64,000 nucleotides of DNA from Acidobacteriaceae bacterium (GCA_003131315.1 PKUV01000160.1:59804-123803), one strand, 5' to 3'; positions 1,920 to 28,797 are shown, numbered from the stretch's first letter. Made by a program: numbers and translations. The notes: generated by a model from the letters alone, not told the origin.

Positions 1920-2396
1920 TTAGCGGTTCGCCTTTGAAGCCTGCCGCTGAGCAGTGACCATGATCTCGATGTGCGCATCGGGCACCGCCAACGCATTTAC
2001 GCCCACGGTCACACGCGCCGGCCGTGGAGCCTTGAAGACCGAAGCATAGACCCCATTCATGCGTTTAAACTGGGTCATGTCGGTGAGAAATACCTGGGCG
2101 GAGACGACGTCCGCGTAGTCCATTCCGGCCGCTTTCAGAATGATTTCTATGTTGTCGAGGCAGGCTTTAACCTCGGCGTCGAAGTCTCTGGGGATTTTCC
2201 CCGTATGCAGATCTACGCCGATTTCGCCGGAAACATACAGCGTGTCTCCCACCAGAATTCCGGGGCTGAAGGGAATGGAATCTTTGCCCTGGTTCCCGAG
2301 TTCCGGCGGTGAGATCACCTTGCGCTGCTGAGCAGACACAACTGCCACGCCAGCAACCAGCAGGAACAGCATCATCGCTACGATCCTTGGTTTCAT
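1920..2396 (-). CDS. exported RidA/YjgF-family protein with a Sec signal peptide
   Basis: N-terminal MKPRIVAMMLFLLVAGVAVVSAQQ is followed by a RidA core (LVGDTLYVSGEIG ... PARVTVGVNAL ... IEIMVTA). The canonical P-A-R arginine is retained. Confidence 0.85.
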   Translation of the reverse strand: MKPRIVAMMLFLLVAGVAVVSAQQRKVISPPELGNQGKDSIPFSPGILVGDTLYVSGEIGVDLHTGKIPRDFDAEVKACLDNIEIILKAAGMDYADVVSAQVFLTDMTQFKRMNGVYASVFKAPRPARVTVGVNALAVPDAHIEIMVTAQRQASKANR

Positions 2397-2420
2397 AGGA
2401 CTCCTCTTCTCATCAGTTCG

Positions 2421-3770
2421 CTACCTCGTTGCCAATGCCGGAGCCGCGACTTCTTTTCCATTCGTCTTGTAGACAATGCCGCCTTTCATTACGAATCCAA
2501 CTCGCTCCAGCTCAGTGATGTCCTTCAGGGGGTCTCCCGAGACAGCGATGATGTCGGCAAACTTGCCCGGCTCAATCGAACCGATGTTCTGGGAATCGCC
2601 GATCAAGTCGGCAGCATTCACCGTGGCCGCGGCAAGAGCGTCCATCGGCATCATACCGAGACGGACCATCTCGGTAAGTTCTTTCGCCGGCGTGAATCCT
2701 CCGCGAAAATTGCCGAAAGAATCGGTGCCCATGGCGATCTTGACTCCGGCTTGATTCGCGCTGGTGAACATCGCCTGAATGACTGGCTCTATGGCGTGGA
2801 TTTTGGCCACGATATGCGGCGGCAATTGTTCCGGGTGTTGTTTTGCAGTTTGGAAAAGCGAGTACGCTACATAAACGGTTGGTACAAGGTAGGTGCCGTG
2901 TTCTTTCATCAGGGCGAACGACTCCTGATCGGCGTAGGTTCCGTGCTCGATGGAATCAATGCCCAATCGGACGCAATTGTCGATTGCAGCTTTGCCGTGT
3001 GCATGAGCTGCGACCTTCATTCCGAGAGAGTGCGCAGTGTCGATGACGGCCTTGATCTCATCGTTGGCCATCAATTGCAGCTTTGGGTCGTCTCCGACAG
3101 AGCCAACTCCGCCACTCGGCACGATTTTGATCAGGTCGGTTCCGCTGCGCCGATGTTCCCGCACTACCTTGCGGGCCTGGTCGGGGCTGTCAACGATCGA
3201 TGCGCTCCACTCTGAGCTGGAAATACCTTCGGCTACGCCATTGGCGCTATCGGAATGGCCACCAGTTGGCCCAATGATTTGACCGGCGGCCCAGATTCTT
3301 GGGCCGATCACAAGTTGGCGCTCAATCGCTTTTTTGAGGGCGACGTCCACCGTGTCGCGTGCACCTACGTCGCGAACACTGGTAAAGCCATTCAGCAGCG
3401 TGGCCTTGGCGTTCGCGGCCGCATAGAAGGCGGAATCTGCAACATTTTCTGTGACCAGATCCTGAAAATAGCTACCCGTGCCCAAATGCATGGTCAGGTG
3501 CTTGTGGCAATCAATCAGACCGGGTAATACTGTCGCGCTGGATAGGTCGATGATCTCGGCATCTTTGGGAGAAACAAAACCGTCCTGGACTGCGCTGATC
3601 CTGCTTCCTTGCACAACGATCGAGATCCGATCGCGAACCTGCTTGTGGGCTGTGTCAATCATCCGCCCGGCATGAATCACTACAATCTTCTGCTGTGCAA
3701 GTCCTTGGGCGCACCAGATGCCGACCAGAAGAGATAGAAGAAAACTGCTCCGCCGCGACCCCTGCTTCAT
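2421..3770 (-). CDS. exported metal-dependent amidohydrolase (Amidohydro_1; prolidase/imidazolonepropionase-like)
   Basis: It has a signal peptide and the motifs LPGLIDCHKHL, AAHAHG, IEHGT and GTDS. It overlaps the upstream gene by 4 nt. Confidence 0.85.
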   Translation of the reverse strand: MKQGSRRSSFLLSLLVGIWCAQGLAQQKIVVIHAGRMIDTAHKQVRDRISIVVQGSRISAVQDGFVSPKDAEIIDLSSATVLPGLIDCHKHLTMHLGTGSYFQDLVTENVADSAFYAAANAKATLLNGFTSVRDVGARDTVDVALKKAIERQLVIGPRIWAAGQIIGPTGGHSDSANGVAEGISSSEWSASIVDSPDQARKVVREHRRSGTDLIKIVPSGGVGSVGDDPKLQLMANDEIKAVIDTAHSLGMKVAAHAHGKAAIDNCVRLGIDSIEHGTYADQESFALMKEHGTYLVPTVYVAYSLFQTAKQHPEQLPPHIVAKIHAIEPVIQAMFTSANQAGVKIAMGTDSFGNFRGGFTPAKELTEMVRLGMMPMDALAAATVNAADLIGDSQNIGSIEPGKFADIIAVSGDPLKDITELERVGFVMKGGIVYKTNGKEVAAPALATR

Positions 3771-5017
3771 GCCAATGCCTCCAGCAGTTTGTCGATGTCA
3801 CTCATAGCGTTAAACACAGAAGGTGAGACTCGGATGTAGCGCCGCGAGACGCGAGCATTGACCTTTGCTTTCAGCAGACGTTGCTGAACCGCCTCATAAT
3901 CCTTCACGGCAAAGCTGACGAGTGCCGAGGTGGACTCCGGAGGCGTAATCGGCGCGAAACCGAGGCGCGGCATTTCTTCATGAAGTCGTTTCAACAGCGG
4001 TTGCCGGTGCGCGTAGATATTCTCGACTCCGAGTTTGCGGATGTAGGGAAGCGACTGCGCCAGCACATGGGCCGTGCCGATTGCGGGCGTTCCGACTTCA
4101 AAATGTCCCGTGGCATTTTTCTCAAGTTCCCAGGTGTACGGGGCAGGGTTCGGCGGATCTCCGGGGAGGAAATGGGAATCGAGCGCACTTGCCTGGTAGT
4201 AGCCGTATTGCGAACGCCGGATGACTCGATCGAGCAACGCTTCCTTTACAAAAAGGAAGCCCAAACCAAAATCGGCCATCAGCCACTTGAAGCTGGAACA
4301 GGCACAGAAATCGACGCCGCTGGCGCGAACGTCGATGGGCGTGTTCCCGGCGGCTTGAACAATATCCGCATAGACATACGCTCCATGGGCGTGAGCAAGA
4401 GCGCAAACCGCCTTCAAATCGTGCTGGAAGCCGTTATCCATGGCGACCAGCGATATTTCGATCAGTTTTGTCTTCTTGTTGACGACGCGCTCCAGATCTT
4501 TCAGGTCAATCCGCCAGTCGCGCGGCATCACTACACGAAGATCAAGGCCGAATTTTTGCCGAAGGGCCTCCAGATGCAGCAGCGCGCCTTCGAAGTGCAG
4601 AGCATCGGTTACGATGTTGTCGGACCTGTAATCAATATCCAACCCATTCACGACGAGGTTCTCCCCCGTGCTGGTATTTGGGACATAACTGATCTCCGAT
4701 TCCTTGGCGTTGATGAGGGCTGCGAATTCGGCTTTGATGTTGATCAGTTTCTTGGGCTGCGACACGACTTGCGGCTGAGAGCGGAACTCCGCCCATTCGC
4801 GCAACGCCACCGCTGCAGCCACCGGCATCGGATGCGTATAGGCGGAGTTGATGTATGTCACGCCATCAGGAATGGCAAAATCCTGCTTCGCTGGCAGAAG
4901 AGATGCCGTGCTCGAAGAGGAACTAGGCTGCAAATTCGAAGCACCAGCTAGGGGGCGGGCGATTCCAGCAGCCGCCAGCATGCCAAGGCCTGCCAAAACT
5001 TCACGCCGGCTGATCAT
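3767..5017 (-). CDS. class V aminotransferase / cysteine-desulfurase-like PLP enzyme with a twin-arginine signal
   Basis: MISRREVLAGLGMLAAAGIARPLAG is Tat-like. SSFKWL is a PLP-lysine context. GGAGGA lies 10 nt upstream of the 5017 ATG. Alternative starts are 5035 and 5071. Confidence 0.8.
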   Translation of the reverse strand: MISRREVLAGLGMLAAAGIARPLAGASNLQPSSSSSTASLLPAKQDFAIPDGVTYINSAYTHPMPVAAAVALREWAEFRSQPQVVSQPKKLINIKAEFAALINAKESEISYVPNTSTGENLVVNGLDIDYRSDNIVTDALHFEGALLHLEALRQKFGLDLRVVMPRDWRIDLKDLERVVNKKTKLIEISLVAMDNGFQHDLKAVCALAHAHGAYVYADIVQAAGNTPIDVRASGVDFCACSSFKWLMADFGLGFLFVKEALLDRVIRRSQYGYYQASALDSHFLPGDPPNPAPYTWELEKNATGHFEVGTPAIGTAHVLAQSLPYIRKLGVENIYAHRQPLLKRLHEEMPRLGFAPITPPESTSALVSFAVKDYEAVQQRLLKAKVNARVSRRYIRVSPSVFNAMSDIDKLLEALA

Positions 5018-5073
5018 GAATTGGTGTTCCTCCATAAGGCCCCCGATCTTCTTTGACGGACATAATCCCAACT

Positions 5074-6633
5074 TCAGGGAGAATGGTGTCCGCCAGTTAT
5101 AAAAGCGCGAACATCACGGGCAAGCATTTGACGCGCTTTTGTGCCGAGATATGGCATGTGGCCGGACGGGTAGACGTGCATTTCGGTCGCAGCCTTTGGA
5201 AAGGCGGCGTGTGCGATGACGTATTCGGCGGAACCAAGCGGCGTTACCAGATCGTAGTATCCGGACCCAACCATCAAGCGCAAATGAGGGTTTCGGCGCA
5301 TCGCTATGCTCAGATCCTCAGCGTAGTTCGTATCGGATCCTGCGCCGGAGCCGCGGCCGTAATCCCAATGAGCATTGACGGCGCGAAAAGAGATTGCTTC
5401 GTAGGGCTCGTCAATCGAGACGCCCAGCTCGTCGTGTTGATAGGTGTTGAAGCTGGCGACAAAGCCCGGAACGTACTGGCCCATGGCCGGATCGTCAGCC
5501 ACGGGATCTTTGCCGTTCGGCGTGAGCGGCAGCGTGTAGCGTGCGTCGTAAGCTCCGACCTGTTCGCCGCGGTCTTTCAGAAGTTCCTGTTCGAAGGCTA
5601 CCGCACTGATTCTCAGATCATTCTTGCGAACGAAATCCGCGGAAAGGCCGGTTAGCGCCGCAAGCCGCGCGGCGACCGCGTCACGCTCAGTAGGTGCCAG
5701 GTTCGTTCCGGCATAGAGTGCTTTCAGATAGGCGTCAGCCGCGAACTTCTTCGCGTCCGCCACTTGCGTTTCCGCAGCACAGCCTACCGCAGCCTTGCCG
5801 TGATAGCACGCGGTAGCAGCAAATGTCGGCAGAATGTTGACGTACGCGGTATCTTCATTGGCCGAACCTTTCAGGTCCAACGCCTGGCCTAGAAGAATGA
5901 CGCCATTCAGCGTCATCCCATCCATGCTTCCGGTTTCCGTGGGTCCGCCCGCGAGCAGGCGCGAAACAACAGCCGCACGTATAGTCCCGTAGCTTTCCGA
6001 GAGCAAGTACTTTGGAGCGTTCCAACGGTTGTTCTCTCGAACCCAGCGCTCAATCAGATCTACGGTCACTTTTCCGTCCTGCATCGTGCCGTAGAATTCT
6101 TCAGGCTTGCCGTCAGGAAGTATGCGACTGAATCCCGTACCGGGCGGATCAATCAGTACGACGTCGGCAACGTCAAGCGGACTATCTTCGTTATCGACAA
6201 TATGAAAAGGTGGTACTGTTTCCGGCTTCAGAACATCCGCGAAATCGACCCGGCGCGGGCCGACAAATCCCATGTGCAGCCAGATTGACGATGATCCCGG
6301 TCCGCCGTTAAACACGAAGATTACAGGGCGTACTGCGCCTTTCGGGATGTCGGTTCGAATGTAGCTCGTTGTGAATATGCTCGCGGTGCGTTTGCCCGAA
6401 GCGTTTGTGACGAAGTTCTCAGCGACAACTGCCTTGTAATGCACCTGCTGTCCGCCAAAGACTCCCTGGTGGGATGTTTCAAAATGTCGCGGGGAAGGTA
6501 AGGTTTGCGGGGTTGGCGCAGCGTCGGCCGCCTTGACAGTATCTGGTCGCGGCGACTGGCCGGTTGACGCGGGGGCGAACAACAGGTTCAACGAGATTCC
6601 CAGGATCAAGAATGCCGTCGCCCATCGCATCAA
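5074..6633 (-). CDS. exported peptidase S10 (serine carboxypeptidase) family, paralog 1
   Basis: It has a signal peptide and the motifs FVFNGGPGSSS, SESYG (nucleophile motif, with G to S at the first position), GYYDLVT and SGHMPY. Confidence 0.85.
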   Translation of the reverse strand: MMRWATAFLILGISLNLLFAPASTGQSPRPDTVKAADAAPTPQTLPSPRHFETSHQGVFGGQQVHYKAVVAENFVTNASGKRTASIFTTSYIRTDIPKGAVRPVIFVFNGGPGSSSIWLHMGFVGPRRVDFADVLKPETVPPFHIVDNEDSPLDVADVVLIDPPGTGFSRILPDGKPEEFYGTMQDGKVTVDLIERWVRENNRWNAPKYLLSESYGTIRAAVVSRLLAGGPTETGSMDGMTLNGVILLGQALDLKGSANEDTAYVNILPTFAATACYHGKAAVGCAAETQVADAKKFAADAYLKALYAGTNLAPTERDAVAARLAALTGLSADFVRKNDLRISAVAFEQELLKDRGEQVGAYDARYTLPLTPNGKDPVADDPAMGQYVPGFVASFNTYQHDELGVSIDEPYEAISFRAVNAHWDYGRGSGAGSDTNYAEDLSIAMRRNPHLRLMVGSGYYDLVTPLGSAEYVIAHAAFPKAATEMHVYPSGHMPYLGTKARQMLARDVRAFITGGHHSP

Positions 6634-6685
6634 TCTCTCCCTCTCCGATCTCGTGAATTACTCTGCAAGAAGCTAACGGTGAAGC

Positions 6686-8197
6686 CTAATAGCGCGAGCC
6701 GACTAAAGTTCGAATATCATCGGTAAACTTCTTGGCGCTGCGCTCTACTGTGTAGGCCATGTGGCCGCCTTCATAAAAGGAAAGAGTGGCCCGGCCTTCC
6801 GGCCAACCCGCTTGCCGCTCAGCATACTCCGCAGCCCCAACTGTTGTTTGCGTGTCGTGATAGCCATTGCCGATCAGAACGTGAAAGTGCGGATTTGCTT
6901 TCATCACCTTCAGGAGGCGGTCGCTGTAGGGCCAATCGGCAAAAGGGCCACTTCCGTCCCATTTCCACTCATCCAACTCCGCCCCCTTGAAAATGATGTA
7001 TTCTTCGGGCCAGTCCACATTCAGGTCCTTGCGAACGTACTCCTGGAAAAGATGTCTGAACGGGGCCGTGATCCGGTCCGACGGATCGGCGGCGAGTCCG
7101 TTGCTCGTGATCGGCGCGACATAGCGGCCGTCGTTTCGGCCAAGCAGCAGTCCGCGATCTTTGAGCAGCACGCCGCGATATTCCTCCTTGCTGATCCGGA
7201 GGCCGTGCTCACGGTAATAAGCTACCGGAATGCCGCTCAGCTCCTCGAGCCGCTTCGCTACGCGATCTCTTTCCGCGGGCTCGATGGAATTCCCTTTGAA
7301 GAGTGCGGTCAGGTAATCGGTTTGCGCAAAGCGCCATGCTTCCCGTTCAAACTCCTCGAATGTCCTGCCCGAGCGGTCAACCTTTTGGTGATACCAGCCC
7401 AGGGCCGCCAACGTCGGCAACGAAACTGCATAACTAACTATGTTCTGCGGCCGCTGGCGATATTCGATGATGTTGATCGCCTGCCCCATCAGGACGACAC
7501 CCTGCAGCAGGATCGGCTTCGGCAATTCGGCAAGCTGGGTAGCAACTTCAGCGGCGCGAATGGTGCCGTAACTCTCGCCCAGCAGGTAAGAAGGCGATGA
7601 CAGACGGCCATGTTGTGTCAGCCATGCGGAGATGAACGCGGTTACTTGCTGTCCATCAGCGGCCACTGAAAAATAGCTCTCCGGCGCGGTTCCCGGCAGC
7701 ACGCGGCTGTAGCCCGTCGAAGCCGGATCGATGAACACAAGATCACTGACGTCGAGCGGCGAATAGGCGTTGTCCACCAACTGAAACGTATTCGGATCGG
7801 CCGTCAAGTCGTCGGGCACCGCCACACGCTTCGGCCCCATGACTCCGACGTGCAGCCACAATGACGCGGTGATGGGTCCGCCATTGAAAACGAACATCAC
7901 CGGCCGTGTTGCAGCGCCTTTGACATCATCGGCGGTATAAGCGAAGCTGACCAGCCGGGCCGCAGGTTTGCCCTTCGCATCAGGAACATCGATCGGCTCT
8001 ACGTCAGCCGTGTACCGGACCTGCTTGCCATTGAACGTCCCGCTGTGGTGGGTAATTACCGGTGCATAGGAAACGACCTGCGCTGGCGTAGCCTGCAGCG
8101 TGGCCATCTGACCGCCAGCAACTTGTCCGGCGGCATGAGACAATGCGAATATCGCAACCAATGCCGCGGTCAAGCTCGTCATTCTTATGCGTGTCAT
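6686..8197 (-). CDS. exported peptidase S10 family, paralog 2
   Basis: The start was chosen at MTRIRMTSLTAALVAIFALSHA. Motifs are FVFNGGP, GESYG, GYHDTQT and GGHMAY. Confidence 0.85.
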   Translation of the reverse strand: MTRIRMTSLTAALVAIFALSHAAGQVAGGQMATLQATPAQVVSYAPVITHHSGTFNGKQVRYTADVEPIDVPDAKGKPAARLVSFAYTADDVKGAATRPVMFVFNGGPITASLWLHVGVMGPKRVAVPDDLTADPNTFQLVDNAYSPLDVSDLVFIDPASTGYSRVLPGTAPESYFSVAADGQQVTAFISAWLTQHGRLSSPSYLLGESYGTIRAAEVATQLAELPKPILLQGVVLMGQAINIIEYRQRPQNIVSYAVSLPTLAALGWYHQKVDRSGRTFEEFEREAWRFAQTDYLTALFKGNSIEPAERDRVAKRLEELSGIPVAYYREHGLRISKEEYRGVLLKDRGLLLGRNDGRYVAPITSNGLAADPSDRITAPFRHLFQEYVRKDLNVDWPEEYIIFKGAELDEWKWDGSGPFADWPYSDRLLKVMKANPHFHVLIGNGYHDTQTTVGAAEYAERQAGWPEGRATLSFYEGGHMAYTVERSAKKFTDDIRTLVGSRY

Positions 8198-8311
8198 TGA
8201 TCCGCCGTTCCCCTGACCAGCATGAAATAGGAGCATGCTTGGTGTATCGGAATTGGCATCAATTTTCCGATGTAGCCGCAAGTGTGATTCGAGTCACGAC
8301 ACAAGCACGCC

Positions 8312-11300
8312 TCAGAAACTCAGCTTTAATGCGAGTTGTCCGACACGAGACGCTACCGATGTGCTCGTGATCTTGCCGAATGCCGGCACCCCGTCGCTGA
8401 AACTTGTATCTGGATTCCCGAATTGCGTGCTGTTGAATGCGTTGAAGAACTCGGCCCGGAACTCAAGAGCCATCCGCTCGGTTAATGCCGTCGTCTTCCT
8501 TAAAGAGAGATCAACGTTATGCTGAGATGGTCCGCGAAGCAGTCCTGGCCTGGTATTGCCAAAGCCCGTTCCTCCGTCTGAGCTGATCGCCGGCGGACCG
8601 GTAAAACAGTTGGTATTGAAATACTCGTTTAGGCGGCTTTTCACGGAGCCTCCTATGCTGAGACTTCCGTTGCAACCGGGCGCGCTGAGATCAAGATTGG
8701 CAAAGTCGCTCGACGTACCGAAAAGATTGTTCGAGTTGGTATTGAGGAATGTCAGCGGCGTTCCGGACTGGATAGTAACTACCGTGGACATGGCCCAGCC
8801 ACTGGAGATTTTTCCCGCAAAACCGGATCCGTGATTGAAACTGGGCAATTCATAAATAGCGCTCACGATCAAGCGCTGCGGACGGCTGAAATTGGCTTCT
8901 CCATAACCTGCATAGAGATTGTTCTGATCTCCGATGGTGCCGCCTCCGAAGGTGCTCCCCACGACGTTCGCTGCCCCGGTTGAGAGCGCCTTCGACCACG
9001 TGTACGCCCCGAGAAATTGCAATCCGTGGCTGAGATGTTTTTTCAGCGTGACTTCCAAGGCGTTGAAGTTTGAACGTCCCTCCGAGCCCTGTTCCTGGAA
9101 GCCGGCTGGATCCCAGCCTTGGTAGGGAACCCTCAGAGCGAGATTCGACAACGTACTGGTGGTTTCCCCGCGGATCGGGTTCTGGGGAGTAGCTAGACCC
9201 GCTTGGTTGATGGAGCGCGAGTAGATTAGATGGTTGGCATTCGATCCGACATAACCAATTTGTAGCGCCAAGGTTGGACTAATTGCAGTTTGCACATTGA
9301 CTACATACTGCTGGGTTATGGCAGGACGGATCGTCAACTGGGTGGCGATGGAGCTCAGATCGCTATTGGGTGTATAGGGATCGAAGAACGGAAATTGACT
9401 GAGCGGCGGGATGGGTTCCTGGAAGGGATGGGCCCATGAGGCGCTACCATTGAAAGGCGGAAAGAAGACGCCAATCAGTGCCCAAGGCAAGCCAGGTATG
9501 GACTGAAACTGGCTGTTGCCGGTCACCGCCGAATAGTAGATCCCATATCCGCCTCGCACCACTACGCGGTCACTCTTAGGCAGCAAACTGTATGCAAATC
9601 CAAATCGTGGACCCCATGTATTGTTTCCGCTCCCGGGTACAAACCCGTTGATTCCGGATTTCACAACGCCGGCAGGGACCGGATTGGTCCAATTGGCCGG
9701 TACCACGTAGCCCGCCAAACTGCCCTCCGGCGGAGGATTGGGATTAATCAGTGCCGGGTTGATGTTTGTTGCTCGACCACTGAGATTGGTGAACGGCGGC
9801 AACCATTCCCAGCGCAAGCCGAGGTTCAGCGTCAACCTGGAGTTGACTCGCCAGTCGTCCTGACCATAGGCCGAAATTTCCCATGTCCGAGCGTGTCCAG
9901 CGAGCACGCCCAGCAATTCGAGGGAGTACAACACATTGCTGAAACCGTCTGGTGGAAAGCCGGGTATTCCGGCGGTCCCGTTTTGTGCGCCGTTCATTCC
10001 AAGGAGGAAGTCCGGCCAACTGGGGAAGTTGACCTGACCGTAATATTCTTCTCCGCTGTTCACCAGATAAGTCCTCGTGACACCGCCGCCGAAGCGAAGA
10101 CTGTGGCGGCCACGCACCCACGCTAGGTTATCCTCCAGGGTGAAAAGGTTCTGCGCATTAGGGGAATAGATACCAGCATTAAAGTTATCGGAACCCGCGA
10201 TCGTCACGGAAGGTTTGTTGTCGTTCTGCGCGGAACTGTTCACTCCAATCCCGGAGAGAGTAAACGGCGAATGGGGCGTGGTGAGCGAACTAATCCGGTC
10301 ATAGCCCAACCGAATCTGGTTGAAAAGGTTTCCCCGGAAGACGTAATTGTCGGTGAGCGAGGCCACCAGATAGTTCAGGTTATTCGTCGATGGAGCACCC
10401 GGTAGATTCCCGCCACCTGCAAATGGATTCGTGGTGTCACTAAGCGCGGTAAAAAATCGGCCTTGGAAGGTGTTTTTCGATGACTGTAGGAAATCGAAAT
10501 TGCCCATGTATTGGTTCTCGTTGAACGTTGCTGGCACACTGAGCGAGACCAAGTCTGTCGCCGGGTTTGCAGTCGGGAAGAGATATTGTCCGTTGGGCAA
10601 TTTCTCCTGCAGAAGAGTCAGCGCCACCGGGTTAATGTTCGATCCGTCCGCGGCAATGGCTGGTCCGAACCCAGGAGGGCCGAAAATGTATTGGAGTCCC
10701 TGCTGCCCTGCAAAAAGCGCCCCGAGCGAAGCGGCGGAACGATCATTGGTAGTGAGCGGGGAAAAGAATGTTTGGCGGCCCGATACTCCATTGATCTGAC
10801 GTGTGCCCTGATACGATCCGAAGAAAAGCAATTTGTCCTTGATAATCGGCCCGCCCAGCGTGCCTCCGAACTGGTTTTGCTTCAGTTCCGGGCGTGGCGC
10901 GCCGTTCTGATTGAGAAAAAAATCGTTCGCATTGAGCACATCGTTCCGCCAAAATTCGAACACGTTGCCATGGAAAGCGTTCGAGCCCGTTTTCGTGACC
11001 AGGTTGATATTTGCGCCGGCGTCCCGGCCATATTCCGCATCGTACATTCCCGTCTGGACTTTGAACTCCTGGATTGTGTCGGGATTGGGGATGGGCACTC
11101 CAAAAGCCGCCGCATCATAATCGTTGACGTCAACTCCATCCATTCGAAAATTGACGTCGCTCGCCCGGGCTCCGTTGACGTTTTGCCCTTGTCCCTCCGT
11201 AGTAGGAATCTGTCCTCCGCTTCCGCGGCCAAGTTCAGTCGCTTGCGTGACACTAGCCACAACCCCGGCCGAGAGAGTCATGATCTGTGTGAAATTGCGG

Positions 11301-11794
11301 TTCACCAGAGGAAGAGATTCGACCTGCGCTGTGCTAACCACATCTCCGAGCGCGTTCGTGCCCGTCTCGACGACCGGAGGCGTTCCTTTGACTTCGATCG
11401 TTGTTGATTCACTACCCACCTTGAGGGTGACATTCGAAGCGTTCGTCTCGGTTACGGTGATGACCACACCTGTTATTGTGGTGCGCGCGAAGCCTTTCGC
11501 ATCAATATCGACCTGATAGGATCCAGGCGGAAGTAGCGGCACCGTGTAGGCGCCATCCGCGCCCGTCCGTACGGCGCGCACCTCATGCGTTCCCTGATTC
11601 GTCACTCGAACATCGGCATTCGACACTACTCTGCCTGAAGGATCGGTGACGGCTCCTTTGAGAAGGCCCGTCGTGGAAGTTTGGGCCCACATTGTTGGGA
11701 AGAGGCCCAGAACCGTGAGTGCCAAGAATACGGATAGCAACAACTCGGTCTGCCATAAGAAAAATCCAATTCTCGTTGACGACATACGTTCCAT
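8312..11794 (-). CDS. TonB-dependent receptor with an N-terminal carboxypeptidase-regulatory-like domain
   Basis: About 1,160 aa. It has a signal peptide and a CarboxypepD_reg-like beta-sandwich (GAVTDPSGRVVSNADVRVTN...GAYTVPLLPPGSYQVDI). It also has a plug region and a C-terminal ...LALKLSF aromatic terminus. GGAGG lies 5 nt before the ATG at 11794. Confidence 0.9.
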   Translation of the reverse strand: MERMSSTRIGFFLWQTELLLSVFLALTVLGLFPTMWAQTSTTGLLKGAVTDPSGRVVSNADVRVTNQGTHEVRAVRTGADGAYTVPLLPPGSYQVDIDAKGFARTTITGVVITVTETNASNVTLKVGSESTTIEVKGTPPVVETGTNALGDVVSTAQVESLPLVNRNFTQIMTLSAGVVASVTQATELGRGSGGQIPTTEGQGQNVNGARASDVNFRMDGVDVNDYDAAAFGVPIPNPDTIQEFKVQTGMYDAEYGRDAGANINLVTKTGSNAFHGNVFEFWRNDVLNANDFFLNQNGAPRPELKQNQFGGTLGGPIIKDKLLFFGSYQGTRQINGVSGRQTFFSPLTTNDRSAASLGALFAGQQGLQYIFGPPGFGPAIAADGSNINPVALTLLQEKLPNGQYLFPTANPATDLVSLSVPATFNENQYMGNFDFLQSSKNTFQGRFFTALSDTTNPFAGGGNLPGAPSTNNLNYLVASLTDNYVFRGNLFNQIRLGYDRISSLTTPHSPFTLSGIGVNSSAQNDNKPSVTIAGSDNFNAGIYSPNAQNLFTLEDNLAWVRGRHSLRFGGGVTRTYLVNSGEEYYGQVNFPSWPDFLLGMNGAQNGTAGIPGFPPDGFSNVLYSLELLGVLAGHARTWEISAYGQDDWRVNSRLTLNLGLRWEWLPPFTNLSGRATNINPALINPNPPPEGSLAGYVVPANWTNPVPAGVVKSGINGFVPGSGNNTWGPRFGFAYSLLPKSDRVVVRGGYGIYYSAVTGNSQFQSIPGLPWALIGVFFPPFNGSASWAHPFQEPIPPLSQFPFFDPYTPNSDLSSIATQLTIRPAITQQYVVNVQTAISPTLALQIGYVGSNANHLIYSRSINQAGLATPQNPIRGETTSTLSNLALRVPYQGWDPAGFQEQGSEGRSNFNALEVTLKKHLSHGLQFLGAYTWSKALSTGAANVVGSTFGGGTIGDQNNLYAGYGEANFSRPQRLIVSAIYELPSFNHGSGFAGKISSGWAMSTVVTIQSGTPLTFLNTNSNNLFGTSSDFANLDLSAPGCNGSLSIGGSVKSRLNEYFNTNCFTGPPAISSDGGTGFGNTRPGLLRGPSQHNVDLSLRKTTALTERMALEFRAEFFNAFNSTQFGNPDTSFSDGVPAFGKITSTSVASRVGQLALKLSF

Positions 11795-11827
11795 GGCTAC
11801 CTCCAAAGGTGCCCAGCCTCAATCAAG

Positions 11828-11841
11828 TTGACTGCTGTCAA
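11828..11841. promoter_or_regulatory. inverted repeat TTGAC-TGCT-GTCAA upstream of the receptor gene
   Basis: Read directly from the sequence, 34 nt upstream of the 11794 start in the divergent intergenic region. Confidence 0.3.
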
Positions 11842-12103
11842 GTGCGACAGGGCGATAAGGGCGAAACCATCCCCACATTGGATACATGCTGCGAATATGC
11901 CCTCGAAACGAGGGCGACTCTATATCAACAAATTGTATAAGTCAAGCCCATAATTTACAAATATATTTGACGCGCCGACCGACTTGGGATATTGTTGCCA
12001 GTCCGGAGTTCCAAAACGCCCCCGTCGCGCTCAGAGCGCTTCGAATCTAATGGCAGGTCTGCGATGTTCAGCCTTGAACAAGAGAGAAACAGGTGATGCC
12101 AAC

Positions 12104-12547
12104 GTGACCAATACACCGAGACCCGCGGAACTTCGATCGCCCGGTGACGAGGGTGCCGGGAAGGCCGCGGCGAGAAATCGTCGCCAGTACGTCCAAATCA
12201 CCCCCCAGGGCCCATTCAGCGATGGCGTCCTCGTAGGGAATACCTTTTATTTATCGGGGCGCATCGGGCTCGATGCTTCGGGCAAGCAAGTGCCAGATGA
12301 CGTTAAGTCCGAAGCTCGTAACGTTATGAATGGCATTCGGCTTGTTTTGCAGAAGGCCGGCATGCAGATGGACGACCTGGTCTACGTCCAGGTCTTCTGT
12401 CCAGACGTCTCGCTATGGGAGCGCTTCAACGCAATTTACTGCTCGTATTTCAACGGCAAATTGCCAGCGCGTGCCTTTGTCGGATCCGGCAAATTGCTTT
12501 TCAACGCCCGTTTCGAAGTACAAGCGATTGCAGTGCGGGCATTCTGA
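12104..12547 (+). CDS. RidA/YjgF-family protein (cytoplasmic)
   Basis: FSDGVLVGNTFYLSGRIG ... PARAFVGSG ... FEVQAIA, with the canonical Arg retained. The start is ambiguous: GTG at 12104 with AGGTGA upstream, while the open frame extends to 11984. Confidence 0.8.
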   Translation: MTNTPRPAELRSPGDEGAGKAAARNRRQYVQITPQGPFSDGVLVGNTFYLSGRIGLDASGKQVPDDVKSEARNVMNGIRLVLQKAGMQMDDLVYVQVFCPDVSLWERFNAIYCSYFNGKLPARAFVGSGKLLFNARFEVQAIAVRAF

Positions 12548-12658
12548 GGAATCTTTGTCGTGGCGATGACCACAAAATGTGGAATACTACCAATCTGCCG
12601 TCCGATGGCGGAACATTGCTTGGCGGCTGCGAGCCCGAATCCGATAAGGAGAATCAGA

Positions 12659-13333
12659 GTGAAACCAAGTGAGAAAGAATACCTTCTCAATTTCGTTTCC
12701 CGGCTAAGTGATGCATTGGGGCAAACCTTTGGGAAATTCAGCGAAATCGTAGTTCATGATCTTAGTTCTCCTGAGAGCTCCATCATTGCGATCGCCAATG
12801 GCAGCCTGACTGGTCGAAAGGTTGGCGACACGCTGGATGCACTCGGATTCCAATTGCTAAAGACCCACCCTGCGTCCGATCTCCTGAACTACAGTACGAA
12901 AACGAAAGACGGTAAGGAGTTGCGGTCTTCCAGCATTTTCCTGCGCGATGAAAAGGGGAAAATTTTTGGAGCACTGTGTGTAAACGTTGATATTTCTGGT
13001 CTGCGCAAGGCGCAGGAATGGATACAGGAGGCTCTAGGCTCAGCCAGCACTGCAATCGACGAGAGATTCGAACGCTCAGTGGACGAGGTATTGGAGAACT
13101 TGATTCAGAATGCCATCGCCAGCATCGGCAAAAAAACGGCCGACATGACTCGCGAAGACAAGGTCGCGATCGTTGCCTACTTGGAGGCCAAGGGCGCATT
13201 TCTCATCCGTTACTCCGTCGAGCGCGTAGCCGAATTGCTCGGTATGACGAAATACACCATCTACAACTACTTGGATGAGATCAGAAAAACGCAGGAAGAC
13301 GACGAGATCCAAACGGCAAAGACATCGCGATGA
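12659..13333 (+). CDS. YheO/DauR-like transcriptional regulator (YheO-type PAS domain plus C-terminal HTH)
   Basis: EIVVHDLSSPESSIIAIANGSLTGRKVGD, and C-terminal VAELLGMTKYTIYNYL. AAGGAG lies 7 nt upstream of the GTG at 12659. Confidence 0.8.
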   Translation: MKPSEKEYLLNFVSRLSDALGQTFGKFSEIVVHDLSSPESSIIAIANGSLTGRKVGDTLDALGFQLLKTHPASDLLNYSTKTKDGKELRSSSIFLRDEKGKIFGALCVNVDISGLRKAQEWIQEALGSASTAIDERFERSVDEVLENLIQNAIASIGKKTADMTREDKVAIVAYLEAKGAFLIRYSVERVAELLGMTKYTIYNYLDEIRKTQEDDEIQTAKTSR

Positions 13334-13413: not shown

Positions 13414-14979
13414 TTACTTCATCGTCGGCACATTCGTGCCCGCGGCAATGAAATCATGCAGTTCCTTCGAGGCGCCCGTGCGCGCGTCGTTGTCCTCGTA
13501 GACCGAATGTCCCGCGGCAAAAGCAACCATGCGAGTTCGATCGAGCGGTATGCCCGCATGCGTCAGCGCGTAACGCTGATACAACACTGTAGCCGCCAGG
13601 TCGTAGTAGCCGCTTATGAGAAGCAGGCGCGATGCGGGTCTTTCTTTCATAAGTTTTGCGAGATTGGGCGTCGGATTCAAGTTGCGCAGAGTGTCCTCGA
13701 GGTTGTGGGACCCTGAGTTCCAGTCCCAGGCGAAGTTAACGTTAAGCGTGAGCGAGAGATAGTCGAGGTCAGTCTTCACCCCGATCTCGTTGCGCAGGTA
13801 ATCGCGCACCCATATGTTCTTGATCACGTTGGAAGCACCCAGGTGGAGTGCCGGGTCATCCGCTGCTTTTGGCCGTCCGGCGACGAGCGGCCTGTCGGGC
13901 CTGGGCGCGGTGACCCGTGTGTCGATGCGTCCCACGACTTTTCCTGGCACAAGCTGTTCGAGAAAATCCTGATCATCGATCCGTAGATTGGCGGCGGCGA
14001 TGGTCGATGCTGGAAGGCCGATCAGCTTTGCCATGCGCTCCGCCAGTCGGTCGCGATCCTGGGCGGAGAGTTCGGATCCCTGCTGCAAAGCAACGATGTA
14101 GTCGCTCTGAGCGAAAGTGCGTGCTTCCTCGAAAACCTGCTCTAGGCTGCGACCATCGCCTCCAACTTTGCCCTGCGCGTACGCTGCCGCAGCCATGGAC
14201 GGCAGAGTGAGCACGAAATGCTGATCATTTCCGGCCGCACCGGAGAGGTCGGTTCCTGGCGAAATCAGCACTAGCCCGGCCACGTTCAAATCGCTAATGT
14301 CTTTCGCCATCTCCGCGAGCCGGTACCCGCCATAACTCTCGCCGACGATGTAGATGGGTGACTTGGTTCGGGTGTTCTCGCGCAGCCAATCGCGAATAAG
14401 TGTCTGGACCGCTTTGGAATCTCCTGACGGGCTCCAGTACGCATTCCCGCCTCCCAGTCTCAGTTCGCGACTAAACCCGGTTCCGACCGGATCGATCATG
14501 ACCAGGTCCGACACGTCAAGCAACGTTTGCGGGTTATCGACAAGAGTTCGCGTCCCCTTTGCATCTGGGTTGGTCAAGCGGCTGGGCCCAAGAATGCCGA
14601 AATGCAGTGGAGAACTGGACGCGCCCGGCCCTCCATTAAAAGCGAAGAGCACCGGTCGCTGCGCGCGGTCGTGCACGTCTTCGCGCACGTAGCTCGTCGC
14701 CGACATTGTTGCTTGTGGAACACCGGCCGGATCTTTCAATAGTATCGACGACCACGTTGCGACATACGGAATCGCGATATCTCCAAGGTGAAGCACGTGA
14801 CGCGACGAAGCCGATGGGATAGGCCGTGGCCAGAGCGCAGAAGAATCGACGGCGATAATCGCACTGCCTGCGACCGTCTGTGTCGCAGGCGGATTTGTTT
14901 GCTGCGTGTGTAGCGCTGGTGCACCCGCCAGTACCAATGCCAAGACCGAACCAGCGGTCAGAAATGCGAACAATCGCAT
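13414..14979 (-). CDS. exported peptidase S10 family, paralog 3
   Basis: Signal peptide MRLFAFLTAGSVLALVLAGAPA. Motifs are FAFNGGPGASS, GESYG, GYYDLAA and AGHSVY. Confidence 0.85.
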   Translation of the reverse strand: MRLFAFLTAGSVLALVLAGAPALHTQQTNPPATQTVAGSAIIAVDSSALWPRPIPSASSRHVLHLGDIAIPYVATWSSILLKDPAGVPQATMSATSYVREDVHDRAQRPVLFAFNGGPGASSSPLHFGILGPSRLTNPDAKGTRTLVDNPQTLLDVSDLVMIDPVGTGFSRELRLGGGNAYWSPSGDSKAVQTLIRDWLRENTRTKSPIYIVGESYGGYRLAEMAKDISDLNVAGLVLISPGTDLSGAAGNDQHFVLTLPSMAAAAYAQGKVGGDGRSLEQVFEEARTFAQSDYIVALQQGSELSAQDRDRLAERMAKLIGLPASTIAAANLRIDDQDFLEQLVPGKVVGRIDTRVTAPRPDRPLVAGRPKAADDPALHLGASNVIKNIWVRDYLRNEIGVKTDLDYLSLTLNVNFAWDWNSGSHNLEDTLRNLNPTPNLAKLMKERPASRLLLISGYYDLAATVLYQRYALTHAGIPLDRTRMVAFAAGHSVYEDNDARTGASKELHDFIAAGTNVPTMK

Positions 14980-15076
14980 TGATTCTTTCCGCTTGCGCTT
15001 CGCCGTGAAGTTCGCATGTTTAATCATTATTTTTCCCGTAACTGAGGCCACCCTACGTATCAACAAAACGTTGAAC

Positions 15077-16603
15077 TCAAGGAGCGTAGTCCTGTCCTAT
15101 CTTATTCGCCTCGATCAGCGTCTTGACATCGCGGCTGAACTCGGCGCGTGTCGACGCATCCCTGTACATCGCATGTCCGCCGACATAGCACTTGAATGTA
15201 ATCGACTCCCGCAACTTCTGCGGAAGTTGGCGCTCGATTTCGTCGCCGACGGCGCAAGGCATGAAGGAATCGTACATCCCCCCTGCAACCAGCACCTTCA
15301 TGCGCGGATTGAGCGCCAGGGCTTCCTCGGTTCCCGGCAACGGCGGACCGAGACGTGGCGGGCCCTCTCCACGCTTGCTCGCCTCTTCGATGGCCGCCTT
15401 CAATTCTTCGGGCGTGACCTTGGCGGTGGCATAGTTCCAGCGTTCGTTCACCGGTTCGGGGTAAGTTCCGCTCGGCGCGAAACCCTGCTCCATTCCTTCT
15501 AACCCAATGTAAGGCAGGCTGGTGTGATAGCCCAGTTCGTGACGAAAATAGTGAAGGATCACGGGAGCATCGTCGTTTCTCGGCGCAGTAGTGCGGCGCA
15601 TGTCAAAGATGTACGGCTCCTTGTCTTGGTCCTTCAACAGTCCAGTCCGAAATTGGCGCGGCGTAATCGTGAGCGTCTTGCGGTCAATCTGTTCTTGCGC
15701 GAGACGAGTGAAGCGTGACAATTGCGTCACGATCGCGGTTCGCTTCGCATCCGATAGTTTCTCGATCCGGTCTAGCGCAGGAGCGTAACTTTCGCGTACC
15801 CACTTCTCGGCAGCCCGCCGCACCCCTTCCGGATCGTTGCCGAGGTCGGGCGCCGTTTTGTGGTAGTAGAGAGCAGTGCTGGCCATGTCGACAGTTTGCA
15901 GCGCGGAACGCAATTCGGGAGAGACGTATTCCTTATTCAGTCCCCACCCCCCTGAAATCAGAACTAGCCCATTGACGGTGATGCCACGCTTCTCCAGCGC
16001 ATAACCCACATGGGCCGCGCGCCCTGCACCCCAACTCTCGCCGGCGAGGAATACAGACGCCTCCTCCGCGCCATGCAGCAAGCGCCACGCGCGAATGAAC
16101 TCGGTCACCGACTCGACATCGCCGACCGTGCCATAGAATTCGGCACTGTACTCCCCCTTCACCGGCCGGCTGAAACCGGTGCCGATCGGGTCAACCAACA
16201 CGAGATCGGTCGTGGGCAGCCAGCTGTTAGGATTGTCGACGAGGTGTCCACCCTCGACCAGCTTCGGGCCGACGATGGAGAAGTGCAACAAAGAAGAATC
16301 AGCGCCCGGGCCGCCATTCCATACGAAAGTTACCGGCCGCAGCCCGTGCGCTGAGGGAATGCGATAGGCGGTGTAAAACATGTATCCATGAGGCTCGCCG
16401 GTCTCAACGTCGCAGATCGCGATCCGGCCGGCTTCCGCCGTGTACTGCAGCAGCTTGCCGCCGATGTGCGCCTCGTGTTGGGTGACAACCGGCGCCTCTT
16501 CGTCGCGCGCGGTTGCGGGGAGAGAGAAAAAGGCGAGAACGGTCGCGCAGGCGACGACGATCAGATTCGTTTTGTTACGCTCTCTCCAGCTCACGAGCTT
16601 CAT
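15077..16603 (-). CDS. exported peptidase S10 family, paralog 4
   Basis: The start at MKLVSWRERNK has GGAGAGGGAG upstream. Motifs are FVWNGGPGADS, GESWG, GGMYDSF and GGHAMY. Confidence 0.85.
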   Translation of the reverse strand: MKLVSWRERNKTNLIVVACATVLAFFSLPATARDEEAPVVTQHEAHIGGKLLQYTAEAGRIAICDVETGEPHGYMFYTAYRIPSAHGLRPVTFVWNGGPGADSSLLHFSIVGPKLVEGGHLVDNPNSWLPTTDLVLVDPIGTGFSRPVKGEYSAEFYGTVGDVESVTEFIRAWRLLHGAEEASVFLAGESWGAGRAAHVGYALEKRGITVNGLVLISGGWGLNKEYVSPELRSALQTVDMASTALYYHKTAPDLGNDPEGVRRAAEKWVRESYAPALDRIEKLSDAKRTAIVTQLSRFTRLAQEQIDRKTLTITPRQFRTGLLKDQDKEPYIFDMRRTTAPRNDDAPVILHYFRHELGYHTSLPYIGLEGMEQGFAPSGTYPEPVNERWNYATAKVTPEELKAAIEEASKRGEGPPRLGPPLPGTEEALALNPRMKVLVAGGMYDSFMPCAVGDEIERQLPQKLRESITFKCYVGGHAMYRDASTRAEFSRDVKTLIEANKIGQDYAP

Positions 16604-16796
16604 TCTCCCTCTCCTTGAAGAGCAGTGTCTGAGCTGCGTTGCAGGCTTGGCCGTGGGTGTACATGCGGGCTGACAATATCCAAAGACTGCCCTGGAGTCA
16701 ACTAATTTTAGAATCATGCCTCGCGTGTGTTAAAGTTTTGTTGATTTCTACTCTCAAAACGGGATATCGGAACGTGAGAGGAAATGTGCGCGGTTT

Positions 16797-22298: not shown

Positions 22299-22542
22299 GC
22301 CGCTCAGTTCAGTGGGTTTGAAAACCCTCTCCCAAGCCGCACCCGCATTGGGGCCGACCGCCCGACCTTGCCCTTTTTGGGTCACTGACGTCCTCGGCAG
22401 CTCCTAGCATCGTAAATTTGATTTTCTACCCGTTCATCCTGACTGATGGAAGCGAGTGTTGTGACTCTGTCAACCGCAAAGCGCCTTCCTTGTCGGGGGA
22501 ATGCAATTACATGGCTGTCGCAACGCGGTTAGTGTAGACCGT

Positions 22543-22572
22543 TTGTCAACTGTTTGACAACTACGACAGTTG
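22543..22572. promoter_or_regulatory. nested inverted repeats (candidate operator)
   Basis: TTGTCAA-CTGT-TTGACAA lies at 22543-22560. It overlaps CAACTGT (22547-22553) ... ACAGTTG (22566-22572). TGTTTG occurs three times nearby. Confidence 0.45.
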
Positions 22573-22766
22573 TTTGTATGCTGTGTCGGCGTCGAATCAG
22601 TGTAGGCAACGCTGCAGATTTCTACGCCAAACGACTGGATCGGCAAGAACCGCTCGCAACGCTTAAGTTGCGCTGCGGAGCGCCGAACGGGTATTTTGCG
22701 ATCGCGAAGCAAGATGGCGTTCGGCTGTGTGTCGCGCAGATCGCTCCTGTGGTTAGTTCGTTCTTT

Positions 22767-23588
22767 ATGAAGGGCTCTCCCCGCAAAACGGCAATCTCGT
22801 GGGTCGAATCGGATCGTATTCTGCTGCGAGGGTATCCGATCGATGCGCTCGTGGGAAATGTATCGTGGGCAGCAGCAGTTTACCTTGCGCTGGTCGGGGA
22901 AATACCGAATCCACGGATAGCGCGGCTTCTGGAGGGCATTCTGGTCTCAGTCATCGATCATGGCCCAACCCCCGCATCCACTCTCGCAGCGTGTACAGTG
23001 GCTAGCACCGGGTCGCCGTTAGCTAGTTCTGTGGCAGCCGGGCTCCTTGCGATAGCGAAGTCTCACGGCGGGGCAATTGAAGATTGCATGAGCGTGCTGG
23101 AGCGTTGTGTGGGCCTGAAACAAGATCCGGCTACGGCCGCTGCCAAAGTGGCACGCGAGTACCGGGAACAGGCGATTAGGGTTCCCGGGTTTGGTCATCG
23201 GCAACATTCGGCGGATCCTCGTAGTATCCGATTGCTCGACCTGGCTCGCGAGCTCGATTTGTTCGGAAACTATGTCGCCCATGCACAAGCCATGGAGGAT
23301 GTTCTGTCTAGAATTGCAGGCAAGCGATTACCGCTCAATGCAGACGGAGCGATAGCTGCTCTGCTCTGCGAGATTGCATTCCCGAAAACAGCCGCGAACG
23401 GAATCTTTATGATCGCCAGGATTCCGGGCTTGGTAGCGCACTGCCTTGAAGAGCAGGCGCGTAACCTTCCGCTGCGCGCCATCGATCCGGCTGCCTATGA
23501 ATATGATGGCCCCCCCGAGCGCAGTCTCGGTGGACAGAAGCACACACCAGAAAATGCGGTCGGAGAGTCCAAGGGAATGCAACCGTGA
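22767..23588 (+). CDS. citrate-synthase-family protein, short citryl-CoA-lyase-like form
   Basis: 273 aa. ILLRGYPIDALVG...VIDHGPTPAS...VPGFGHRQHSADPR...IARIPGLVAHCLEEQ. The start at MKGSPRK was chosen over the longer 22554 frame. Confidence 0.75.
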   Translation: MKGSPRKTAISWVESDRILLRGYPIDALVGNVSWAAAVYLALVGEIPNPRIARLLEGILVSVIDHGPTPASTLAACTVASTGSPLASSVAAGLLAIAKSHGGAIEDCMSVLERCVGLKQDPATAAAKVAREYREQAIRVPGFGHRQHSADPRSIRLLDLARELDLFGNYVAHAQAMEDVLSRIAGKRLPLNADGAIAALLCEIAFPKTAANGIFMIARIPGLVAHCLEEQARNLPLRAIDPAAYEYDGPPERSLGGQKHTPENAVGESKGMQP

Positions 23589-25036: not shown

Positions 25037-25087
25037 CGTCAGCGGATTTCAGTTCAGCGGCATCGGGAAGATTCATGAAACTTTTTC

Positions 25088-25163
25088 TTGACAAAGGGCG
25101 CCTCTCCCATGAAAATCAGCACCTAGTGACAAGTGTTTGAAACAGAAAACAGTGGAAAACAGT
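25088..25163 (+). promoter_or_regulatory. candidate promoter and operator of duplicated module A
   Basis: TTGACA (25088-25093), then 17 nt, then GAAAAT (25111-25116). Next come the palindrome TGTTTgAAACA (25134-25144) and GAAAACAGT twice (25145, 25155). Confidence 0.35.
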
Positions 25164-25229
25164 CTAGGCACCAGGAAATCCAGAGGTATTTGGACAACAG
25201 AGATGTCTTCACGAGTACAGGGGGATCCA

Positions 25230-26660: not shown

Positions 26661-26690
26661 ATCGAGAGTCTGGGCAGGAAGGATGAAAAG

Positions 26691-27863: not shown

Positions 27864-27912
27864 AGCAGGATCGCGGCGGCAGGATTATTTGGGTTCATAA
27901 CGGGAGCGGGAA

Positions 27913-28797
27913 ATGTCTGATACCAACTACAAAGCGGTAGATATTTCTATTAATGCGTTTCTGCCTGAGAGTTCCTACAAACATCTGTCACTCGGCTTGT
28001 GGAAGGCGTCCGGGCCATCGTACGAAGAGAAAATCCGCAAAGGCTGGACCGCCGAGTACATGGTTGAGATGATGGACCGAGGAAACGTGGAGTTGTCTTG
28101 CCTGATTTCATTGTGCTCGGCGAACGGCGTAGGCGGGGAGGAATTGATCGTCCCTATTGAAGAAATCATTCCAGTCATCCAGAAATATCCCAAGCGGTTC
28201 GTCGGGCTGGTGGGACTTTCGCCACTGCAGAAATGGGGAAGTCCTTACTATCCACCCACCTACATTGAACGTGCGGTGAAGGAACACGGCTTCAAAGGGG
28301 TACACATGTATCCCCACTGGTTCGGAATCAGGGTTAACGATCGGCGCATGTATCCCATTTATGAGAAGTGTGCGGAGCTTGATGTCCCTATTTCATTCCA
28401 GACCGGACAAGGGACGATGCGTTCGAATTCGCGAGTCGTGGCCCGTCCAATTTGGATCGACGAAATTGTGCGGGATTTTCCGACGCTGAAAGTGATTGCG
28501 CTGCACAGCGGATATCCGTGGGAAGACGAGTTAGTTGCGCTCGCGATCACGAATGAGCACGTCTACATTTGTCCTGACGTTCCGCCACCACGACTGTGGC
28601 ATGCGTCCATATTGTCCTACTTGAAAGAAGAAGGGCGTTTCGAGGGCATGAGTGGAAGCGACAAGGTCTTGTGGGCTACTGACTTCCCGTTACAAGAGCC
28701 CGACAAATCCTTGAAAGAGGTGGATGCGCTCGGATTGACTCCGGAAATTCGTCGGAAACTGGTGCGAGACAATGCAATAAAGCTGTTCAAGCTGTAA
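27913..28797 (+). CDS. Amidohydro_2 (ACMSD/LigI-like TIM-barrel) protein (module A)
   Basis: HMYPHWFG, ALHSGYPWEDE and LWATDFP. The N-terminal site reads VDISIN instead of D-x-H-x-H. Confidence 0.8.
   Translation: MSDTNYKAVDISINAFLPESSYKHLSLGLWKASGPSYEEKIRKGWTAEYMVEMMDRGNVELSCLISLCSANGVGGEELIVPIEEIIPVIQKYPKRFVGLVGLSPLQKWGSPYYPPTYIERAVKEHGFKGVHMYPHWFGIRVNDRRMYPIYEKCAELDVPISFQTGQGTMRSNSRVVARPIWIDEIVRDFPTLKVIALHSGYPWEDELVALAITNEHVYICPDVPPPRLWHASILSYLKEEGRFEGMSGSDKVLWATDFPLQEPDKSLKEVDALGLTPEIRRKLVRDNAIKLFKL

Follow-up and report, generated by a model that had tools for sequence, protein, structure and literature searches.

A 64,000-nucleotide stretch of DNA from an Acidobacteriaceae bacterium (GCA_003131315.1, PKUV01000160.1:59804-123803), referred to here as the window, carries on its minus strand, between positions 1920 and 5017, the genes for a class V-fold pyridoxal 5′-phosphate (PLP) enzyme, an amidohydrolase-superfamily peptidase and a RidA-family protein, all three with predicted export signals. 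A preliminary description had reported these genes, with the amidohydrolase gene between the other two and a 4-nucleotide (nt) overlap, and had proposed that the quenching of reactive enamines and imines, for which RidA is known in the cytoplasm, is here relocated to the periplasm. The arrangement was borne out, the ATG of the amidohydrolase gene overlapping the stop codon of the PLP gene as ATGA. The three genes are the last of six arranged head to tail from 11806 to 1920 in a tight co-directional cluster (Table 1), with successive intergenic gaps of 52 nt, 56 nt (38 nt from the alternative ATG at 5035), −4 nt and 24 nt on the way to the RidA gene.

Signal peptide and active site of the RidA protein

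The start of the RidA gene is marked by a GAGGAG ribosome-binding site 6 nt before the ATG, and the encoded N-terminus consists of MKPR, the segment IVAMMLFLLVAGVAVV and VSA, with QQ following the predicted cleavage site. Essentially all of the full-length proteins among the 120 best homologs have a positively charged N-terminus, a hydrophobic core and an A-x-A-like site, and about 100 of the 120 homologs listed (55-92% identity) retain a Sec-type signal, constant in its n/h/c architecture and variable in sequence. Mean pairwise identity is 24% in the signal compared to 66% in the mature part, which in the homologs opens with a conserved segment, (R)KVISPPEF..PFSPGIL. The preliminary description had raised the concern that the true starts might remove the signals of the RidA protein and the PLP enzyme. 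Because the ribosome-binding site is strong and the signal is conserved in homologs, the RidA signal is real and not a start-codon artefact, and conservation in homologs likewise rules out such an artefact as the source of the PLP-enzyme signal, both signals being traits of their families. Among representative relatives of this RidA, the best 148 were also examined, and about 110 of these had signal-like or lipoprotein-like N-termini, many of them proteins of 260-430 amino acids (aa) with two or three Rid domains, and exported Rid proteins appear to be common among environmental bacteria.

The window RidA shares with the cytoplasmic RidA proteins that accompany PLP-dependent serine/threonine dehydratases (Salmonella enterica, E. 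coli RidA/YjgF, TdcF) the PF01042 domain and the equivalents of E. coli RidA residues Ser30, Asn88, Arg105 and Glu120, present here as S56, N114, R128 and E144 and invariant in the alignment. The canonical-arginine RidA with a Sec signal that had been described earlier was thus upheld. As in the cytoplasmic systems, the protein is encoded beside an enzyme of a class able to release enamines or imines; unlike them, it has a conserved Sec signal, a short N-terminal insert in the mature protein and a partner with a twin-arginine translocation (Tat) signal. It also differs from E. coli RidA in the replacement of Tyr17 by Phe43 and of Cys107 by Thr130, and its TIGR00004 score of 96.9 bits falls slightly under the cut-off of 106.25. 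A periplasmic function for the window RidA is likely.

Signal, fold and active site of the PLP enzyme

The PLP enzyme begins with MISRREVLAGLGMLAAAGIARPLAGA, followed after the predicted cleavage site by SN, and the twin-arginine pattern that had been noted in it is present in 115 of 120 homologs. The hydrophobic region of this signal is less hydrophobic than that of the RidA Sec signal (1.98 compared to 3.08), and a basic residue precedes the predicted cleavage site. Export of both RidA and the PLP enzyme is a well-supported prediction.

An AlphaFold model of the PLP enzyme, made from an 81-sequence alignment, reached a pLDDT of 90. Its nearest folds are SufS and CsdA (TM 0.75-0.81, 20-24% identity), and the best sequence matches are of the same type (E 1e-24 to 1e-30). 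The PLP-binding lysine, K244, aligns with Lys226 of E. coli SufS, and D218, Q221, H141 and R396 are retained as the equivalents of Asp200, Gln203, His123 and the carboxylate-binding Arg379. Retention of R396 suggests a free alpha-amino acid as the substrate. In all eight aligned members of the family, a 13-residue deletion replaces the SufS Cys364 loop GHHCAMPLMAYYNVPAM, no conserved cysteine was found in the family after residue 240, and all NCBIfam desulfurase models score far below their cut-offs on the window protein. Since the Cys364 segment is deleted family-wide, the enzyme is not a classical cysteine desulfurase or selenocysteine lyase, which is the JGI name of many homologs. It further differs from SufS and CsdA in having a Tat signal and no Suf or Csd partner gene. 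Membership of the PvdN family (NF051467) was also rejected, the score being 20.6 bits compared to a cut-off of 650, and PvdN was absent from the top sequence and fold matches.

The nearest mechanistic model, by analogy, would be the cystine C-S lyase C-DES (PDB 1elq), a beta-lyase that also has no persulfide cysteine and releases 2-aminoacrylate; the C-DES match is weaker (E 2.5e-15) and a lyase activity of the window enzyme is a guess. The family is large and generically named, with 2,800 matches at E <= 1e-20 among 8,000 candidates scored.

Predicted exported Rid proteins beside Tat-signal lyases elsewhere

Independent pairs of an exported Rid protein and an enamine-forming enzyme were found in other genomes of the phylum and in the genome of the window itself. 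In one genome (G383:C5, locus L097:6477-8637), an exported RidA of the window clade starts 2 nt after the gene for an iron-sulfur (Fe-S) L-serine dehydratase with SDH_alpha and SDH_beta domains and a Tat-lipoprotein signal scoring above the TIGR01409 cut-off. L-serine dehydratase produces 2-aminoacrylate. In a second (G279:C1, locus L098:8612-10792), an exported RidA of that clade and a Tat-signal dehydratase share a single reading frame of 726 aa, explained either by fusion of the two genes or by a lost stop codon. Tat-signal Fe-S L-serine dehydratases occur in 14 of 401 sampled Acidobacteriota genomes, always with a GVDRRxF-type motif (GVDRRxFLxR...), and RidA adjoins them in just these two. 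Both loci also hold a 2-oxoglutarate-Fe(II)-oxygenase-like gene and porin-like genes.

The window's own genome has 11 Rid genes, four of them with predicted export signals. In one cluster outside the window (contig C60, Table 1), a Rid protein with a Tat-like signal is encoded directly upstream of a Tat-signal PLP ammonia-lyase of the DgaE family, and the gene content looks like a route in which an amino-sugar acid is deaminated in the periplasm and the keto-deoxy acid is then taken up and cleaved. In another, also outside the window (contig C94), the gene for an exported triple Rid protein has that of an exported lactonase on one side and that of a Tat-signal DgaE-like lyase on the other, and this cluster may encode a periplasmic route of oxidation, lactone hydrolysis and ammonia elimination. 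Across the phylum, a twin-arginine motif was present in all 30 sampled DgaE-like genes, with an exported Rid gene within 1.5 kb in 13 of them. The DgaE family (TIGR01437), which includes the Salmonella D-glucosaminate-6-phosphate ammonia-lyase, forms an enamine or imine product that needs hydrolysis, and its Tat-signal forms beside exported Rid are the best analogue of the window pair. Unlike the window PLP enzyme, DgaE belongs to a SelA-like PLP subfamily that is not represented in the window cluster, and the characterised DgaE is cytoplasmic. These analogous pairs offer the strongest support for a general role of exported Rid proteins in periplasmic enamine and imine quenching.

The preliminary description had suggested periplasmic deamination or desulfuration of amino acids. 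The analogues with serine dehydratase and DgaE-like lyases favor general enamine and imine quenching, while classical desulfuration is unlikely because the Cys364 loop is deleted.

Linkage of the PLP and RidA genes across loci

The PLP family was surveyed in the Acidobacteriota and Gemmatimonadota (80 species genomes), with the addition of one Verrucomicrobiia metagenome-assembled genome (MAG). The order of the locus in Terriglobales is receptor, S10-like peptidase, PLP enzyme, with a second S10 gene after the first and the amidohydrolase and exported RidA genes after the PLP gene variably present. Conserved neighbors, counted over 69 loci, were S10 (26), the receptor (17), the amidohydrolase (8), an M61-like peptidase (8) and exported RidA (5, plus truncated cases), and S10-like genes are the most constant neighbors whether the PLP family or the RidAs of peptide loci are considered. 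An exported RidA gene lies directly after the PLP gene in L006, L016, L019, L023, L129, L143 and L147 and one gene beyond it in the window, L091 and L022. It follows the amidohydrolase gene in the window, L091, L022, L031 and L121.

In a tree of 89 exported RidAs, every RidA from a peptide locus belongs to a single supported clade (47 rows), whose basal members are linked to S10 or amidohydrolase genes. The PLP-linked RidAs, including that of the window, form a grade inside which an abundant stand-alone metagenome lineage is nested. The tree is consistent with an old linkage of RidA to the peptide locus and a narrower link to the PLP gene that was lost at least once.

Several results weigh against the view that the PLP enzyme is the source that feeds the exported RidA. 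An exported RidA is present in only about 7 of 80 PLP-family genome loci, and at about 40 loci of the family no neighbor is conserved. In L001, L010, L119 and L120, from which the PLP gene is missing, RidA stands beside S10 genes, and in L121 it adjoins the amidohydrolase gene, the PLP gene being absent; beside exported RidA, S10 and amidohydrolase genes are as frequent as the PLP gene. Seen from the RidA side, a PLP gene is nearby in only 3-4 of 80 metagenome loci, a count that overstates unlinked RidA because one heavily sampled nested stand-alone lineage and a separate clade inflate it. Close members of the window RidA clade turned up in only 5 of the 401 genomes sampled from the phylum, and exported RidA is therefore dispensable for the peptide locus. 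At the protein level, the Tat hidden Markov models stay below threshold when applied to the single window sequence (PF10518, 17.4 compared to 22.7 bits; TIGR01409, 13.7 compared to 16.7), the signal calls throughout come only from inspection and from conservation across homologs, and transamination or epimerization, with no enamine set free, could be the reaction of the PLP enzyme. A RidA dedicated to the PLP enzyme, as first proposed, was accordingly not demonstrable from the linkage counts, and the survey of neighbors that had been suggested gave a divided answer, an exported RidA directly after the PLP gene or one gene beyond it recurring in about ten related loci and many other loci being free of PLP genes or holding a stand-alone RidA.

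Other neighbors of exported RidAs were also recorded. At L118:4852-6429 and L120:2693-7141, they adjoin a gene of the proline-racemase family or of the ornithine-cyclodeaminase/mu-crystallin family. Both families handle cyclic imines. As exported partners, the neighbors of these two families (L118, L120, L178-L202) were rejected for having no export signals. At L099:1692-4593 (G269:C16), an exported RidA lies downstream of the gene for a 471-aa protein with the Tat-like N-terminus MNRRQFQAALLAAP.

Other genes of the cluster and its surroundings

The amidohydrolase is probably of the COG1228 carboxypeptidase/prolidase type, with a predicted signal at residues 1-25 (MKQGSRRSSFLLSLLVGIWCAQGLA, then QQ). 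Its nearest solved structures are 2qs8, an Xaa-Pro dipeptidase (E 7e-79), 3mtw, the L-Arg carboxypeptidase Cc2672 (E 1e-75), and 4c5y, an ochratoxinase; it scores 370 bits with NF051886, below the cut-off of 500. Signal-like N-termini are kept in seven of its orthologs, in agreement with the export signal first attributed to it, and both S10 proteins of the cluster likewise keep signal-like N-termini in orthologs. The second S10-like reading frame (6686-8281) has a probable start at 8197 (MTRIRMTSLTAALVAIF...). The three genes lie in the co-directional cluster downstream of S10-like peptidases with predicted export, a point on which the preliminary description, with its neighboring carboxypeptidases, is supported. 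The window holds four S10-like peptidases (within 5074-8281 and 13414-16717), all with weak and partial Pfam S10 matches, and a sequence search with that at 5074-6633, the one of the four tested, gave no relative of solved structure.

The receptor gene that opens the cluster also heads related loci. Promoter-like matches are confined to the region upstream of this first gene, and terminator-like sites within the cluster show no excess (9 found compared to 11.1 expected); the six genes are probably co-transcribed. An insertion-sequence remnant follows the RidA gene. Upstream, a divergent pair of genes encodes a second RidA, which has no hydrophobic N-terminus, and a regulator, and this pair recurs in related loci. 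Among named relatives, Terriglobales MAGs of soil and peat origin are the nearest.

Table 1 Features of the cluster, its predicted export signals and surroundings, and two related clusters of the same genome (positions are those of the window, except for the C60 and C94 clusters, which are given in the coordinates of C60 and C94)
Feature	Position	Strand	Details
RidA-family protein, 158 aa	1920-2396	-	PF01042 E 1.7e-31, residues 42-149
Predicted Sec signal peptide of RidA, residues 1-22	2331-2396	-	Mature part 1920-2330
Amidohydrolase-superfamily peptidase, predicted exported, 449 aa	2421-3770	-	PF01979 E 2.7e-50
Class V-fold PLP enzyme, 416 aa (422 aa from ATG at 5035)	3767-5017	-	PF00266 E 3e-38
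Predicted twin-arginine signal of PLP enzyme, residues 1-26	4940-5017	-	Motif S-R-R-E-V-L, hydrophobic region AGLGMLAAAGIA, then R-P-L-A-G-A
S10-like serine peptidase with predicted signal peptide	5074-6633	-	PF00450 E 3e-8, partial match
Second S10-like serine peptidase	6686-8281	-	PF00450 E 5e-11; orthologs in related loci
TonB-dependent-receptor-like outer-membrane protein	8312-11806	-	First gene of the cluster; PF25183 E 4e-180, PF13620, weak Plug match
Two overlapping sigma-70-like promoter matches	11917-11960	-	Upstream of receptor gene; consensus matches only
Divergent pair: cytoplasmic-type RidA and YheO-like PAS_6/HTH_22 regulator (12560-13333)	11984-13333	+	PF01042 E 1.3e-24; PF08348, PF13309
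C60 cluster	3415-12120		IclR regulator, exported RraA-like, Sec-signal RidA, Tat-like Rid, Tat-signal DgaE-family lyase, major facilitator superfamily transporter, KDG-kinase-like, Eda-like aldolase
C94 cluster	22471-35138		TonB-type receptor, cytochrome c, exported SMP-30/gluconolactonase-like, exported triple-domain Rid, two Tat-signal DgaE-like lyases, pyrroloquinoline-quinone dehydrogenase

Discussion

We consider it about evenly poised that the cluster serves a Terriglobales acidobacterium in salvaging peptides and amino acids in the periplasm, where a predicted Tat-exported PLP enzyme releases an enamine or imine that the exported RidA hydrolyzes. Peptides would be admitted by the TonB-type outer-membrane protein, and amino acids would be released from them by the exported S10-like peptidases together with the amidohydrolase-type carboxypeptidase or dipeptidase. 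The class V enzyme would fold with its cofactor in the cytoplasm, be exported via Tat and act on a free alpha-amino acid, most likely by an elimination that releases an enamine or imine, the preferred guess being a beta-lyase reaction resembling that of C-DES, with cystine or an S-substituted cysteine as the substrate. The Sec-exported RidA would hydrolyze this product to a 2-oxo acid and ammonium, which would speed the release of nitrogen and shield the exported PLP enzyme. In this scheme, we infer what the PLP enzyme acts on and which type of reaction it carries out, and that this enzyme, rather than another periplasmic source, would feed RidA.

More broadly, and tentatively, we propose that Acidobacteriota, and probably other soil bacteria, carry out periplasmic deamination in which at least three unrelated Tat-exported enamine-forming lyases (SufS-like class V, DgaE-like and Fe-S L-serine dehydratase) are each repeatedly paired with an exported Rid protein (single-domain Sec-type, single-domain Tat-type or triple-domain). 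Control of enamines would then be compartment-wide, and nitrogen would be stripped before the inner membrane is crossed.

It is also possible, if rather unlikely, that the exported RidA serves the whole peptide locus or the periplasm generally and that its adjacency to the PLP gene reflects shared regulation; its candidate substrates would be dehydro-amino acids from S10 or amidohydrolase cleavage of dehydropeptides, or would come from periplasmic oxidases or lyases encoded elsewhere. The linkage data lend this explanation some weight, with S10 and amidohydrolase genes flanking exported RidA at loci that have no PLP gene, the basal peptide-locus RidAs linked to these genes and not to PLP genes, the majority of PLP loci without RidA and many exported RidAs standing alone. 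It accounts less well for the direct PLP-RidA adjacency in at least seven loci, which has persisted through rearrangement, and for the observation that where the chemistry of the partner is known, as for L-serine dehydratase and the DgaE-like lyases, exported Rid adjoins an enamine-forming enzyme.

We regard as improbable a second explanation, in which the PLP enzyme works in the periplasm as a transaminase, epimerase or decarboxylase of the PvdN or PtaA kind, tailoring or converting an amino compound with no release of an enamine, and RidA has a separate role, for example as a stress chaperone or on other imines. Neither PvdN nor PtaA, both known to be exported by Tat, is indeed a lyase, the window enzyme has no catalytic cysteine and gives a weak full-length match to the NCBIfam PvdN model (E 1.5e-4), and the annotation of E. 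coli RidA includes a redox-regulated chaperone. The PvdN score is nevertheless a small fraction of its cut-off and PvdN is not among the top matches, the conserved neighbors are peptidases, with no siderophore or natural-product context, and a periplasmic transaminase would require a keto-acid acceptor. That the hydrophobic N-termini are uncleaved membrane anchors or annotation artefacts, with the proteins acting at or inside the cytoplasmic membrane, is very improbable given a RidA start fixed by a strong ribosome-binding site, a −1 position filled by small residues (Ala in 36 of 43), a hydrophobic region of only about 16 residues behind a positive n-region and a signal whose sequence diverges while its character persists, and an anchored domain would still lie outside the cytoplasm.

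RidA has so far been framed as guarding cytoplasmic and organellar PLP enzymes against 2-aminoacrylate. To our knowledge, the list of periplasmic PLP enzymes is very short (PvdN, PtaA and some racemases). A 2015 survey of the Rid family mentions neither signal peptides nor the periplasm (PMC4433059), and literature searches for RidA in the bacterial periplasm, for signal peptides on Rid proteins, and for serine dehydratase or glucosaminate lyase in the periplasm gave no relevant paper. A parallel is found in the alga Chlamydomonas reinhardtii, where the periplasmic L-amino-acid oxidase LAO1 is complexed with LAO2/RIDA (PMC10805672; cited in PMC5053998). This system, like that proposed here, combines an extracytoplasmic deaminating enzyme with a RidA-family partner and draws nitrogen from external amino acids and peptides; unlike the algal complex with its flavin adenine dinucleotide-dependent oxidase, the window system is bacterial and has a PLP enzyme and separate genes. 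For a Tat-signal L-amino-acid oxidase cluster of Gluconacetobacter, extracytoplasmic deamination with a RidA partner has been proposed (PMC5053998). PvdN and PtaA of fluorescent Pseudomonas are periplasmic PLP enzymes exported via Tat with the cofactor loaded (PMC6206403), and the window enzyme resembles them in being of fold-type I with a twin-arginine signal. It differs from them in its context of peptide catabolism, as opposed to siderophore tailoring, and no RidA partner has been described for PvdN or PtaA.

The interest of these observations lies mainly in the generality of the exported Rid/lyase pattern, which also gives the large Tat-signal class V family a testable functional context. 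If the proposal is true, damage control by RidA would extend to the bacterial periplasm, the short list of periplasmic PLP enzymes would grow, and the abundant, little-studied Acidobacteriota of soil would strip nitrogen from peptides, amino acids and amino sugars outside the cytoplasm.

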